Source: a virus (lineage: Duplodnaviria; Heunggongvirae; Uroviricota; Caudoviricetes). Taken from it: DNA of 4,307 nt. This document shows positions 468-4,307 of the stretch, one piece after another. The notes beneath the pieces are model-generated. The model worked only from the letters and a program-made list of their open reading frames with translations. It made no database searches and was not told where the DNA came from. The stretch lies in the IMG/VR virus record IMGVR_UViG_2740892423_000017, one strand, 5' to 3'. Position 1 is the first letter of the stretch; every line of letters starts with the position of its first letter. The position numbers and the translations under genes were made by a program.

Positions 468-831
468 AAATGTAGAAATGGCGCTTAGCTCCGCAATCGG
501 AGAGCAGGTGGCAAAGATTGCTGGTGCTGTGTGGATTCATAACCTTCATTCTACTGGTGAAGAGAAAATGGCAATTCAGACGCCAGAGGGACGCACCATT
601 ACTACATCTCTGAAGCCGTCAGATGTTTGTGATCTGATTTGCGCATTCATGTACCCAGCAATGAGGACTGTCCACGGCGATAAGTGGAAACTTGCGACAA
701 CCGCTGAATTTGATATGTGGCTAAACAATGATGGCATGCTGACTGATTACGGAATAACCAAGTGGCAGATGCTGGTTAGCCATATCGCAAACGCTATAGA
801 CCACGTGGGGTACGGTGATGCGAAACATTGA
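460..831 (+). CDS. hypothetical small protein (123 aa), second small ORF, translationally coupled on both sides
   Basis: ATG at 460 overlaps the upstream stop by 8 nt, with GGGAGG (448-453) as SD. Stop TGA at 829-831 lies 14 nt inside the primase ORF. No recognisable domain. Confidence 0.7.
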   Translation: MRENVEMALSSAIGEQVAKIAGAVWIHNLHSTGEEKMAIQTPEGRTITTSLKPSDVCDLICAFMYPAMRTVHGDKWKLATTAEFDMWLNNDGMLTDYGITKWQMLVSHIANAIDHVGYGDAKH

Positions 832-3274
832 TCTTATCCGTCAGGTTATCAGTGCGTCTGAAAACAACTGGCCTCATGTGCTGGGCTGCCTGAACATAAA
901 TGTCCCTGACTCTCCGCGCCGTCATGCTCCCTGCCCTGCATGTGGTGGAAAAGACCGTTTCAGATTCGACGACAACGGGCGCGGTAGCTTTATCTGCAAC
1001 CAGTGTGGCGCTGGTGACGGGCTGGATTTAATCAAGCGGGTTAACAACTGCGACACCACGGAGGCGGCACAGCTTGCCGCTGACGTGCTGGGTATTGATT
1101 ACCGGGCAGCGCAAACCGACCCGGCGGCAGCGAGCCATAGAAGAGAGCAACTGGAAGCCGACCGCCAGCAGCGTGAGCAGGAGCGCCAGAAACAGGCAGC
1201 AGAGGACGCAGAGCAGCGAAGGGCTACGTTTGCCCATCTGTATGCCGGAATGCGCCAGAGTGCCACACAGGGCGAATCTGATTACCTGCAATCAAAAGGG
1301 CTGACCGGGTTTAACTATCCGGTTATGCCGGATGGTTCGTTATTGCTGGAGCTGGTGGACGAATCCGGCGCAGTGGCAGCAGCGCAAACCATTACACCGC
1401 AGGGAGAGAAGCGACTCCTGACAGGTTCAGCAAAGCGCGGGGCATATCACGCCGTAAACGCGCCAGAATCGCCGCAGAGCGTTTTAATTGCCGAGGGGCT
1501 GGCTACCGCTCTGTCTGTTCACCTGATGCGCCCGGACGCGCTGGCAGTGGCAGCAATTGACGCCGGGAACCTGATCCACGTTGCCGGAGTAATGCGCCGG
1601 AAATACCCGCAGTCGCAAATTATTATCGCCGCAGATAACGACCACCCTACAGCAGCCTCCGAAACCGGAGCCACCAACATCGGGAAGGAGGCCGCAGAGA
1701 AAGCAGCTTTATCCGTGGCTGGCTGGGTATCGCTGCCACCGACTGACAGCAAAGCTGACTGGAACGACTACCACCAGCAACACGGGCTGGAAGTCGCTAC
1801 GGCTGCGATTAACGATTCGATGTACCGGCCGCAGGGGGAATGCGTGAAACCACAACTACAGGCCATTGCTGGCGGTAAATCCCGCCGTAAAGCCGATGTC
1901 GGAGATATTGCACAAATGGCAGCCAGCCAGAAAGCGCGGTTGCTTTCATCTCGATGGGATATGTTGGCGGTTAACCCAGATAGTGGCACTGTTTACTGCT
2001 ACGAATCTGGCGTATGGGTGAAGCTACCAGACAGCGAATTAGAAAGGGTTATGGTGGCAATTTTCGACGAGCACGAAGCCCACTACACCGAAAAGGGGAT
2101 TAAATCGGTTGTCGCAACCATGAAGCTGCAAATACCGGTAATTGGTGAGCGGAGCGGGGATCTGATTGGTTTTGATAACGGCGTTTATGACCTCGCTACG
2201 CAGACGTTTTCCGCCCATTCGCCGGGTAACTGGCTGATGAACCACAATGGGATCACCTACACCCCGCCAGCGCCGGGGGAAAATATTACCACCAGCGCCC
2301 CCAATTTTACCCGTTGGCTGAATCATGCAACGGCTGGCGACCATCATAAGGCCGAGCGTATCAAAGCAGCCTTGTTTATGGTGCTGGCGAAGCGTCACGA
2401 CTGGCAGCTATTCATTGAGATAACTGGCGAGGGCGGCAGTGGGAAATCCGTATTCAGCAGCATAGCCGTATCACTGGCAGGTGAGCACAACACAGCCAGC
2501 GCCAGCATGGGAGCGCTAGACACAGCCAGAGGGCGGGCGCAGCTTGTAGGAAAAAGCCTGATTATCATGCCAGACCAGACCCGCTATGTTGGCGAAGGCG
2601 CAGGGATAAAGGCCATTACAGGCGGCGACCCAGTAGAGATTGATGGTAAGTATGAAAAGCAGTTCACCACCGTGCTAAATGCCGTTGTTCTCGCAACCAA
2701 CAACGAACCAATGACCTTTACCGAGCGCAACGGGGGCATTGCCCGCCGCCGTGTGATATTCCCGTTCGATAATCCGGTATCAGAAGCGGAGAAAGACCCC
2801 GACCTGACAGCGAAGATCTGCCGTGAAATGCCGGTAATTATTCGTCACTTGCTGGCAATGTTTGCCGACCAGAACAAAGCTAAAGCGCTTTTAATCGAGC
2901 AGCGCGATTCCGCAGAGGCGTTGGGCGTTAAGCGCGGGACAGATCCGGTCATAGACATGTGCGCGGCCTTGTATTTTATGAACGAGCCGAAGGGAATGAT
3001 GATGGGGGGAGGAACGTGGGCAGGACAGCCAGAGCCGAGAACTTACCTGTATCACCTTTATTTGGCCTTTATGGAATATCACGGGCTAGGGAAGCCGCTT
3101 TCCGTCAACAAGTTCTCACGGGCGATTAAATCAGCCGCCAGAGAATACAGGGCTAACTACCTGACACGCAGCATTAACGGCAGAGCGCAGACGAACGTTG
3201 GGATCAATGAGTTGGCGGAGGAGTTTATACCGCGAGCATATGGCAGCAGCACCGCCGAAGGGGGTGATGAATAG
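818..3274 (+). CDS. DNA primase-helicase, phage P4 alpha-like (N-terminal Zn-ribbon, TOPRIM primase, D5_N-like region, SF3/P-loop NTPase, C-terminal putative origin-binding region)
   Basis: An 819-codon frame from GTG 815; I prefer ATG 818 (GGGG at 807-810 as SD). Zn-ribbon C-x2-C...C-x2-C (CPACGGKDRFRFDDNGRGSFICNQCG, nt ~932-1006). TOPRIM glutamate in IAEGLATALS (GAG at 1493-1495), resembling the EGYATA primase motif of P4 alpha as I recall it, and acidic cluster IIIAADNDH (~nt 1620-1645). FDNGVYDL motif typical of D5_N/P4-family primase C-terminal domain. Walker A GEGGSGKS (nt 2426-2449) and Walker-B-like LIIMPD. Stop TAG 3272-3274. Confidence 0.93.
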   Translation: MRNIDLIRQVISASENNWPHVLGCLNINVPDSPRRHAPCPACGGKDRFRFDDNGRGSFICNQCGAGDGLDLIKRVNNCDTTEAAQLAADVLGIDYRAAQTDPAAASHRREQLEADRQQREQERQKQAAEDAEQRRATFAHLYAGMRQSATQGESDYLQSKGLTGFNYPVMPDGSLLLELVDESGAVAAAQTITPQGEKRLLTGSAKRGAYHAVNAPESPQSVLIAEGLATALSVHLMRPDALAVAAIDAGNLIHVAGVMRRKYPQSQIIIAADNDHPTAASETGATNIGKEAAEKAALSVAGWVSLPPTDSKADWNDYHQQHGLEVATAAINDSMYRPQGECVKPQLQAIAGGKSRRKADVGDIAQMAASQKARLLSSRWDMLAVNPDSGTVYCYESGVWVKLPDSELERVMVAIFDEHEAHYTEKGIKSVVATMKLQIPVIGERSGDLIGFDNGVYDLATQTFSAHSPGNWLMNHNGITYTPPAPGENITTSAPNFTRWLNHATAGDHHKAERIKAALFMVLAKRHDWQLFIEITGEGGSGKSVFSSIAVSLAGEHNTASASMGALDTARGRAQLVGKSLIIMPDQTRYVGEGAGIKAITGGDPVEIDGKYEKQFTTVLNAVVLATNNEPMTFTERNGGIARRRVIFPFDNPVSEAEKDPDLTAKICREMPVIIRHLLAMFADQNKAKALLIEQRDSAEALGVKRGTDPVIDMCAALYFMNEPKGMMMGGGTWAGQPEPRTYLYHLYLAFMEYHGLGKPLSVNKFSRAIKSAAREYRANYLTRSINGRAQTNVGINELAEEFIPRAYGSSTAEGGDE

Positions 3275-3287
3275 TTTACCCCTGATT

Positions 3288-3306
3288 TATCCCTACCTAT
3301 CCCTAC
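3288..3306. repeat. iteron cluster 1: two direct copies of TATCCCTAC (3288-3296, 3298-3306)
   Basis: Direct reading: ttatccctacctatccctac, copies spaced 10 bp. Confidence 0.8.
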
Positions 3307-3346
3307 AAAGTCATTTAAGGCCAGTAATGACGGGGCTTGTAGACTG

Positions 3347-3392
3347 GTAGGGATATATATATTTATCCCTACATATCCCTACATATCCCTAC
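3347..3392. repeat. iteron cluster 2: inverted copy GTAGGGAT (3347-3354), 10-bp AT-only spacer (3355-3364), then three direct copies of ATATCCCTAC (to 3392) at 10-bp phasing
   Basis: Direct reading: GTAGGGAT-atatatattt-ATCCCTAC forms a perfect 8-bp inverted repeat around a pure A/T spacer, a plausible DNA-unwinding element. It is followed by ATATCCCTAC ATATCCCTAC. Confidence 0.8.
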
Positions 3393-3430
3393 TAAACAAG
3401 AAGCCACGCATAACCGTTTTTTGGTATTTG

Positions 3431-3459
3431 GTAGGGATAGGTAGGGATAAGTAGGGGTA
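3431..3459. repeat. iteron cluster 3: three reverse-orientation copies GTAGGGATA, GTAGGGATA, GTAGGGGTA at 10-bp phasing
   Basis: Direct reading: gtagggatag gtagggataa gtaggggtag. A degenerate forward copy (tgCCCTAC, 3469-3476) follows after an A-rich spacer. Confidence 0.8.
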
Positions 3460-3515
3460 GAAAAACAATGCCCTACCAGCCTGAAAGCCGCGCCACATAT
3501 GGGTTTTATCGATTG

Positions 3516-3533
3516 GTAGGGATTGGTAGGGAT
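3516..3533. repeat. iteron cluster 4: two reverse-orientation copies of TTGGTAGGGAT at 10-bp phasing
   Basis: Direct reading: gattggtagggattggtagggata. Lies about 35 bp upstream of the next ORF, so it may overlap that gene's promoter. Confidence 0.75.
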
Positions 3534-3565
3534 ATTACACCCCCAAAAAGATTCACAGGGGGGGT

Positions 3566-3775
3566 ATGATTCAGCTAAAGGGCGAAAAAATGAACGAACA
3601 TCATAAAAAGCAGATCGAAGTTGTTAGAGAGATTGAAGCGCAGGGGTTCACCGCGCAGGAGGCGGCGGCCTTGTTACTGGCTGGCGAATTATCCCGACTA
3701 AATGACAGCATGGACTACCTGAAACGAGCCGCTGGGAATATTGACGACACGTTATCAAGAATGGAGTGCGCTTAA
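3566..3775 (+). CDS. hypothetical small protein (69 aa from ATG 3566; 61 aa if translation starts at ATG 3590), predicted mostly helical, translationally coupled to the downstream SSB-like gene
   Basis: ATG 3566 sits 1 nt after a G7 run, which is poor SD spacing. The in-frame ATG at 3590 has AAGGG (3578-3582) 7 nt upstream and is the more likely start. Stop TAA 3773-3775 overlaps the next ATG (TAATG). No recognisable motif; the stretch FTAQEAAALLLAGELSRL could be a DNA-binding helix, but that is speculative. Confidence 0.6.
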   Translation: MIQLKGEKMNEHHKKQIEVVREIEAQGFTAQEAAALLLAGELSRLNDSMDYLKRAAGNIDDTLSRMECA

Positions 3776-4209
3776 TGACAGCACAAATTTCAGCATACGG
3801 GCGGCTGGTGGACGAGCCGCAGGTAAAACAGACCAGCAAAGGCACAAGCATGACGCTGGCACGCATGGCGGTATCAGTGCCGTGCCATAACGCAGACGAC
3901 GGGCAGGCGACGCTATGGCTTGCCGTAACTGCCTTTGGCAGACAGGCCGACGCACTGGCAAAGCACCACAAAGGCGACCTTGTGAGCGTGGCGGGTAACA
4001 TGCAGGTGAACCAGTGGACAGGCCAGAACGGCGAAACGCGGCAGGGCTGGCAGGTTATCGCAGACAGCGTAATCAGTGCGCGAACGGTGCGACAGGGAGG
4101 CAAAAATAGCCAGCGGGGACAGGCGACGGACGCGCTGAGACGTGCGCAGCAGTCAACCCGTGATGAATACGACCAGCGCCCACCATTCGACGATGAAGCG
4201 CCATTCTGA
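3775..4209 (+). CDS. ssb: single-stranded DNA-binding protein (SSB-like OB-fold protein, 144 aa) with acidic C-terminal tip ...FDDEAPF
   Basis: ATG 3775 overlaps the upstream stop, with GGAG (3763-3766) 8 nt upstream; the ORF track's 3766 start is a GTG 9 nt further upstream in the same frame. The translation aligns by eye to E. coli SSB: [19 protein letters not shown] vs [40 protein letters not shown] vs [38 protein letters not shown] vs LRTRKWTDQSGQDRY. The tail PPFDDEAPF matches the SSB tip MDFDDDIPF. The linker is much shorter than in E. coli SSB. Confidence 0.85.
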   Translation: [144 protein letters not shown]

Positions 4210-4219
4210 GGGGGGGGGG
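4210..4219. repeat. G10 homopolymer tract in the 15-nt gap between the SSB stop and the next ATG
   Basis: Direct reading: tga-GGGGGGGGGG-tgaac-ATG. It is positioned where the Shine-Dalgarno of the downstream gene should be. Confidence 0.9.
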
Positions 4220-4224
4220 TGAAC

Positions 4225-4307
4225 ATGGTAAACGACAGCAAAGCTGAGGATCTGGAAGCAAAAGGGCTGTACCGACGCGCCGCCGCGCGATGGATGGAAG
4301 TCATGCT
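4225..4307 (+). CDS. 5' end of a gene running off the window (27 codons visible); possible PerC-family small transcriptional regulator
   Basis: ATG 4225 lies 5 nt after the G-run and the frame is open to the window end: MVNDSKAEDLEAKGLYRRAAARWMEVM. The segment AE-LE--GL-RRAA-RW--V matches what I remember as the conserved N-terminal signature of PerC/Pch-like regulators. This is recall, not a search result. Confidence 0.45.
   Translation, partial: MVNDSKAEDLEAKGLYRRAAARWMEVM

Follow-up and report, generated by a model that had tools for sequence, protein, structure and literature searches.

The repeat array at positions 3283-3540 of the window, as the whole 4307-bp draft contig JRGD01000037.1 is called here, is very probably the vegetative replication origin of a Gram-negative PICI-type phage satellite of E. 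coli, approximately 12 kb long. The homology of the protein encoded just upstream with P4 alpha, the likeness to EcCICFT073, the conservation of the iterons and the tracking of the iteron word with the C-terminal half of that protein all argue for an origin, as had originally been predicted. From this homology and from the anatomy of the array we infer the binding of the protein, the firing of the origin and the start site. The element carries int, alpA, antA, the gene of an alpha-type primase-helicase, the putative origin, ssb and perC; its integration site is either a tRNA or an intergenic att site. Gram-negative PICIs, and at a greater distance P4 and SaPIs, are known to have origins of this kind, to which the window adds a member with its own iteron word; a literature search for this word returned only I-SceI-site and primer matches. 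The view of how these elements replicate is unchanged by this result, and its comparative point is modest. What it provides is a short draft contig that carries a satellite replication module, with the putative origin placed to the base, which is of use for annotation and for minimal replicons.

Iteron copies and layout of the array

The word ATCCCTAC, or GTAGGGAT in the reverse orientation, occurs in the window in 10 exact copies, which start at 3289, 3299, 3365, 3375 and 3385 on the forward strand and at 3347, 3431, 3441, 3516 and 3526 on the reverse strand. An eleventh copy with one mismatch lies at 3451-3458 on the reverse strand, and a twelfth, degenerate forward site, tgCCCTAC (gCCCTAC), lies at 3469-3476, a position that is also occupied in relatives. 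Every copy, exact or imperfect, falls inside 3289-3533, and the sites are six forward-biased and six reverse-biased. No further exact copy of ATCCCTAC is present in the rest of the window or in the complete 19.5-kb copy of the element (L087, which has an identical primase), where all 10 exact copies are in one array and 0.31 would be expected by chance. When one mismatch is allowed, 16 matches are obtained in the window versus 2.4 +/- 1.7 expected, a value that none of 200 shuffles reaches; the five matches outside the array each contain a mismatch.

The original prediction gave at least 12 copies, which holds only when both imperfect sites are counted, because ten of the copies are exact, one has a single mismatch and one is degenerate; as exact copies the number is 10. 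The spacing of 10 bp inside clusters was correctly described, the repeat scan giving exactly this distance from iteron to iteron, as was the palindrome GTAGGGAT-atatatattt-ATCCCTAC at 3347-3372. The start of the array right after the primase-helicase gene also stands, with the stop codon ending at 3274 and the first 9-mer beginning at 3288, and the next ORF after the array begins at 3566. The sites do not form four clusters as proposed, the actual groups being six (2/1/3/3/1/2).

A larger pattern, absent from the original prediction, is that the whole array is one imperfect palindrome of 258 bp (3283-3540). Aligned with the reverse complement of the right half (3427-3540), the left half (3283-3396) is identical at 87 of 111 bases, with an alignment score of 53 versus 4.5 +/- 1.9 for shuffles, and the dyad is also found as inverted repeat I1. 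The sites are arranged as two forward, one reverse, an A/T spacer and three forward, followed by a 38-bp centre and then by three reverse, an A-rich spacer, one forward and two reverse. Because the array is a palindrome, BLAST with the array matches both strands, in two places, in every genome that holds it. The features of the window, with the evidence for each in brackets, are the following:

815-3274, + strand: P4-alpha-type primase-helicase, 819 aa (Pfam, P4 alpha match, PHROG)
2939-3214, + strand: predicted winged-helix origin-binding domain, codons 709-800 (phmmer versus PDB 1KA8)
3283-3540, no strand: putative whole origin, composed of two half-origins (87/111 identity of half versus half; inverted repeat I1; two-strand matches per genome)
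3288-3306, + strand: iterons 1-2, TATCCCTAC twice in 10-bp register (repeat scan)
3307-3346, no strand: left-half non-iteron segment of 40 bp and 55% A+T, which includes CCAGTAATGAC and mirrors 3477-3515 (dyad alignment)
3347-3355, - strand: iteron 3, lone reverse copy and left arm of the small palindrome (repeat scan)
3353-3366, no strand: pure A/T spacer, candidate melting site (least stable duplex in the window)
3364-3392, + strand: iterons 4-6, TATCCCTAC three times in 10-bp register (repeat scan)
3393-3430, no strand: dyad centre of 38 bp and 63% A+T, its sequence unconserved among relatives (dyad alignment, relatives)
3431-3459, - strand: iterons 7-9, GTAGGGATA twice and GTAGGGGTA with one mismatch (repeat scan)
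3457-3470, no strand: A-rich spacer GTAGAAAAACAATG, 71% A+T, mirror of the pure-A/T spacer (dyad alignment)
3469-3476, + strand: iteron 10, degenerate forward tgCCCTAC, mirror of iteron 3 (position kept in relatives)
3477-3515, no strand: right-half non-iteron segment, with the CTGAAAGCCGCGCCA block at 3481-3495 (block kept even in EcCICFT073)
3516-3534, - strand: iterons 11-12, GTAGGGAT twice, mirror of iterons 1-2 (repeat scan, dyad)
3566-3775, + strand: 69-aa ORF without assigned function, first gene past the putative origin (ORF list, Pfam, PHROG)
3775-4209, + strand: element-encoded single-strand DNA-binding protein, SSB (Pfam SSB, E = 4e-17; 65% identity to EcCICFT073 SSB)

Nowhere in the 4.3-kb window is the duplex weaker than in ATATATATATTTA (3353-3365), whether stability is calculated over 13, 20, 30 or 50 bp (z = 3.6-4.0), which makes the pure-A/T spacer thermodynamically plausible as a melting site. 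The AT-rich tract of EcCICFT073 and EcCIRM13514 (77-78% A+T) spans the 35-40 bp that separate the lone reverse iteron from the first iteron pair, and in P4 ori it likewise lies between these sites. The same segment of the window array has just 55% A+T, and the sole strongly A/T stretch is 14 bp long. Given that the AT-rich tract of the tested and known origins sits in another segment, the melting site may differ from the one originally proposed.

Apart from the iterons, the CTGAAAGCCGCGCCA block at 3481-3495 (mirror partner at 3321-3346) is kept in EcCICFT073 despite different iterons there, and GAAAGCC or AAGCCTT is present in 12-15 of 30 non-redundant origins. Possible roles of this block are those of a second protein site and of a priming signal. 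The short ORFs in the array, at 3379-3498 on the reverse strand and 3468-3569 on the forward strand, are iteron sequence and were not counted as genes. An RNA gene in the array was rejected, the Rfam matches being to eukaryotic miRNA families, all sub-threshold, and artefacts of the palindrome.

Replication of P4 is DnaA-independent and bidirectional. Initiation of the DnaA-independent kind fits the array because DnaA boxes (TTATCCACA), IHF sites and GATC are all absent from 3275-3565 at up to one mismatch. An origin of the DnaA-dependent iteron-plasmid type was rejected, since neither DnaA boxes nor an IHF site nor GATC clusters were found beside the iterons.

The primase-helicase upstream of the array

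The ORF upstream of the array starts with GTG at 815, and public gene calls begin at the ATG at 818. According to Pfam, its product contains a Zn-ribbon, a Toprim domain, D5_N, an SF3-helicase P-loop (DUF5906) and a Pox_D5-like C-terminus. The protein is 38% identical to phage P4 alpha across 97% of its length and matches the PHROG 'DNA primase' with E = 8e-149. Residues 709-800 match the structure of the origin-binding domain of P4 alpha (1KA8; phmmer, E = 1.1e-8), and the helicase core matches PDB 7OLA (E = 2e-11), deposited as 'DNA primase', which we take to be a SaPI primase-helicase.

Two small ORFs precede this gene, at 126-467 (113 aa, matching phrog_37628) and at 460-831 (123 aa, no family), overlapping each other by 8 bases and the primase start by 17 bases. 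Both are kept 5' of the primase in the copies with an identical primase (L087-L090), and the E. coli relatives L001, L002 and L083 have a matching ORF of approximately 113 aa directly before the primase. These ORFs may be translationally coupled replication accessory genes.

The element and its downstream genes

In the window, the array is followed by the 69-aa ORF, the SSB gene and the beginning of the PerC gene, and the SSB is likely an accessory factor for replication. An E. coli draft genome (L087) holds a complete copy of the element, with primase and array identical to those of the window. From the tRNA-Thr(CGT) beside proA, its order is int, AlpA, AntA, DUF4222, small ORFs, primase, array, 69-aa ORF, SSB, PerC and a few more genes, over approximately 12 kb and with all but one of the called genes on one strand. 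The combination of int, alpA, rightward genes and a length of approximately 10-15 kb, without phage lysis or tail genes, is that of a PICI and is found in this element. Among its called genes, an annotation check revealed no Pfam families corresponding to sid, delta or psu. The same array is found in related E. coli elements at yicC-dinD and der-yfgJ, besides thrW, and this occurrence at different integration sites means that the array moves as part of the replication module rather than together with the integrase or att site. Approximately 1800 E. coli loci have primase DNA in common with the window.

The run of G at 3559-3565, before the ATG of the 69-aa ORF, has 7 G in the window and in L089, and 8 G in L087 and L088, a difference set in stretches of 340 bp that are otherwise 100% identical; among relatives the run has 6-9 G. 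Pairing of this run with CCCCC at 3540-3544 folds the mRNA into a conserved hairpin (3530-3572; -17.7 kcal/mol, z = -3.1), which extends over the likely ribosome-binding site and the start codon of the 69-aa ORF. The run may represent a slippage-prone translational control, or a homopolymer sequencing error. A second homopolymer, of 10 G (4210-4219), lies between the stop codon of the SSB gene and the start of the PerC gene at 4225.

Conservation of the array among relatives

Conservation was evaluated in nine loci that share the word ATCCCTAC (from E. coli, Shimwellia, Kluyvera, Atlantibacter, Buttiauxella and others). Pairwise identity in this set is 87% in the iteron columns versus 67% in the other intergenic columns, and when eleven 8-mers were placed at random 5000 times, the conservation observed for the iterons was never reached.

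A wider set of relatives comprises approximately 60 loci (30 non-redundant) whose proteins are homologous in the C-terminal half, and most of these loci have a repeat array directly after the stop codon. A search for arrays beside P4-family primase genes had been suggested with the original prediction, and it is the plan that recurs among these relatives, with a word that varies. Where arrays are clear, the plan and the approximate spacings are kept and the word differs by lineage, with at least eight words: ATCCCTAC; TCTCTACC in Rosenbergiella and Aeromonas; TATCTACC in Yersinia; GGTCTACC in Tolumonas; ACCCTACC in Aeromonas; TGTTCACC in Tatumella, Erwinia, Serratia and Rahnella; CTGTGCAC in Proteus; and GTGTTCAG in Yersinia. 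The words of Xenorhabdus are mostly based on TGTATA, with GATGTATAG in many loci and GGTGTATA in L031. The copies within a locus change together, as expected of sites that are read by one co-evolving protein. The 12-site dyad appears to be family-wide, and P4 ori looks like one half of it.

The part of the protein that the word follows can be discerned from 16 loci whose proteins share 50-74% identity with that of the window over their first 340-480 residues, which make up the primase domain. The C-terminal half is unrelated in at least 13 of the 16 (two of the ORFs are truncated), and 12 of those loci have the unrelated iterons GTTGGTTC, TGTTGTCT and ACGGGTTA. Where their arrays are complete (approximately 8 loci), the plan is three forward, three reverse, two reverse, one forward and three reverse. 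Unrelated iterons therefore accompany an unrelated C-terminal half, indicating that the word goes with this half of the protein rather than with its primase domain.

When their last 120 residues are aligned, the proteins fall into two super-classes of origin-binding-domain residues, which match two super-classes of iterons. Proteins with words ending in CTAC have A-[IMVL]-K-x-A-[AT] and T/S-R-x(3)-G-x(2)-Q-T-N, and those with TGTTCAC, TGTGCAC or TGTATA words have [FIL]-P-K/V-[VIM]-M and T-[KND]-x-G. The non-P4 members of the latter class have Y-[NS] where the CTAC class and P4 have T-N. This suggests that the iteron word and the origin-binding domain may switch modularly and in concert among relatives. 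A fixed 12-site dyad with at least eight words also constitutes a natural series for the study of specificity change in a winged-helix domain and for the design of compatible replicons.

The primase domain of the window protein (815-2030, residues 1 to approximately 405) is common to proteins of approximately 920 aa, at approximately 50-74% identity, encoded in loci L049, L054-L056, L059, L063, L065, L066, L068, L069, L074, L077, L079 and L082. A shared primase domain joined to unrelated C-terminal halves points to domain shuffling between initiator families. Loci L009 and L049, from an assembly labelled Chryseobacterium sp. 18061, are Enterobacteriaceae-type elements with primases that are 81% and 74% identical to that of the window, and this assembly is probably contaminated or mixed. 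In E. coli 19-5 (L001, 11392-11966), the RefSeq names 'ubiquinol-cytochrome C reductase' and 'nicotinic acetylcholine receptor subunit beta' are placed on small ORFs of the element, and are evidently spurious annotation transfers.

Function of the array and alternative explanations

If the array is the origin, replication may proceed as follows. After induction, the primase-helicase encoded just upstream would be made, and its C-terminal winged-helix domain would bind the twelve TATCCCTAC sites, which in their 10-bp register lie on one face of the helix. The twelve sites would act as two mirror-image half-origins, each with two forward sites, one reverse site, an A/T spacer and three forward sites, and the bound subunits would assemble into SF3 helicase rings, probably one per half-origin and facing in opposite directions. 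The DNA would open at the pure-A/T spacer (3353-3366) and possibly also at its A-rich mirror (3457-3470). The Toprim domain would then prime, the SSB of the element would coat the single strands and the host polymerase would elongate. In this scheme, we infer the loading of the rings, the melting site and bidirectionality.

A broader and tentative reading, which is possible although rather doubtful as a whole, is that two P4-ori-like half-origins placed head to head are the ancestral, family-wide design of alpha-type origins, of which P4 ori would be a single half. Two SF3 hexamers would be loaded in opposite directions as in SV40 and papillomavirus, and the word and its recognition residues would switch together, being exchangeable apart from the primase domain. 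If true, these elements would be mutually orthogonal replicons, and satellites sharing a cell would not fire each other's origins.

The location of the array is also that of crr in P4, which is found directly after the alpha stop codon and consists of two direct 120-bp repeats, with 10 type-I iterons spread over 300 bp (X51522 annotation). Position alone would indeed suggest crr, that is, an enhancer that binds the primase-helicase and is needed in cis for a replication that starts elsewhere in the element. Nonetheless, this is quite unlikely, given that each half of the array has the plan of P4 ori and not that of a crr unit, that crr is made of direct repeats and the array is an inverted dyad, and that just one iteron cluster is present in each of the complete elements L087, L001, L002, L003 and L004. 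Moreover, in EcCICFT073 pri-rep and its 3' region alone support replication (PMC6092414). The sites could also form an operator, bound by the primase-helicase or by another regulator, that controls the transcription of the 69-aa ORF, ssb and perC. The distance from the end of the last two sites to the next ORF is 32 bp, the conserved RNA hairpin just downstream covers the likely ribosome-binding site, and the scan of 3150-3700 revealed no terminator between the primase gene and the 69-aa ORF, which places the array in a transcribed region. However, the same scan (3150-3700) revealed no promoter-like site on the + strand, the last pair of sites mirrors the first pair, and the dyad is kept whichever gene follows. 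Twelve sites in 250 bp, with an A/T core and tracking the origin-binding domain of the helicase, have the anatomy of an origin, making an operator very unlikely. The original proposal that the last cluster couples replication to the transcription of the next gene finds no support, this cluster being the mirror of the first and lacking a + strand promoter-like site. A side effect on read-through transcription is possible, the primase gene and the next ORF having no terminator between them.

Satellites of this family carry cos sites of the helper phage somewhere in their genome, and palindromic repeats can serve as binding sites for a terminase or a recombinase, so that a packaging (cos/pac) or attachment site of the element was also considered. 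The att ends of the full element are nevertheless distant, approximately 9 kb to the left of the array, at the tRNA-Thr next to int, and approximately 3 kb to its right. No lambda-type cosN with up to three mismatches is present in 3275-3565, and matches elsewhere are at chance level. The word follows the C-terminal half of the helicase and not the integrase or att site, with the array occurring at yicC-dinD, der-yfgJ and thrW. This explanation is extremely unlikely.

Comparison with known replication origins

SV40 large T antigen and papillomavirus E1 are SF3 helicases with their own origin-binding domain, and at their origins dyad sites beside A/T-rich DNA load two hexamers head to head. An SF3 helicase with its own predicted origin-binding domain, and dyad sites next to A/T-rich DNA, are also found in the window; the analogy is functional only, and the loading of a double hexamer at the array is a conjecture.

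The biochemistry of P4 ori, crr and alpha is reportedly due to Ziegelin, Lanka, Calendar and co-workers. The window protein shares with P4 alpha a homologous multifunctional architecture of primase, SF3 helicase and origin-binding domain (38%/97%; 1KA8 at E = 1e-8), and the array of 8-9-bp iterons directly after the gene resembles crr, with a binding of the C-terminal domain that is predicted in the window. In the orientation of alpha, P4 ori has two forward sites, the AT-rich tract, one reverse and three forward sites, which is the plan of one half-origin of the window. The type-I iteron of P4 is TGTTCACC, unlike the TATCCCTAC of the window, although the relatives L045, L061, L062, L007 and EcCIRM13514 do use the P4-type TGTTCAC(C). 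P4 needs two separated cis elements, ori and crr, with ori proper lying 4.5 kb from crr (X51522 annotation), whereas the element of the window has just a single array. The inverted-dyad form of this array contrasts with the direct 120-bp repeats of crr, type-II repeats are absent from it, and the annotation check found the element to be without sid, delta and psu. The 10-mer CAGTAATGAC is present in the window at 3322-3331 and in P4 (L084) at 9339-9348, in different slots of the plan. As a family-wide non-iteron motif, CAGTAATG(AC) was rejected, and because this 8-mer is found in just 4 of 30 non-redundant origins, the motif match between P4 and the window may be due to chance.

In SaPIs, the origin is also found just 3' of the initiator helicase gene, with iterons flanking an A/T-rich region (PMC6092414). 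These elements differ in having Gram-positive hosts, divergent regulators with the Stl repressor, unrelated iterons and a protein that is only distantly related.

For Gram-negative PICIs, the origin is the region immediately 3' of the initiator gene (PMC6092414), which is where the array is located (stop codon ending at 3274, first iteron at 3288). In EcCICFT073, pri-rep together with the 3' ori segment drives plasmid replication (Fillol-Salom et al. 2018, ISME J, PMC6092414). Deletion of pri-rep or of ori lowers plasmid maintenance, with the deletion of ori decreasing colony numbers without abolishing them (PMC6092414). The initiator and the putative origin of the window are homologous to this validated replicon. 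Both have the order primase, array, small ORF, SSB and PerC, the intergenic region after the primase gene being approximately 290 bp in EcCICFT073. The SSBs are 65% identical, and the Pri-Rep of EcCICFT073 shares 49% identity with the helicase and origin-binding part of the window protein (residues 271-805). The two arrays align site for site on the same 12-site dyad plan, share the non-iteron block CTGAAAGCCGCGCCA, and have two iteron sets around A/T-rich DNA, the AT-rich part being much shorter in the window than in EcCICFT073. Indeed, EcCICFT073 has a long AT-rich tract in the left half, whereas the window has a segment of 55% A+T and the 14-bp pure-A/T spacer. The iteron word is (C)TGTCTACC in EcCICFT073 versus TATCCCTAC in the window. 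The 584-aa protein of EcCICFT073 gives no alignment before residue 271, whereas the 819 aa of the window protein keep the P4-like Zn-ribbon and Toprim. EcCIRM13514, a catalogued PICI at yicC-dinD, has the same plan built from the P4 word TGTTCACC.
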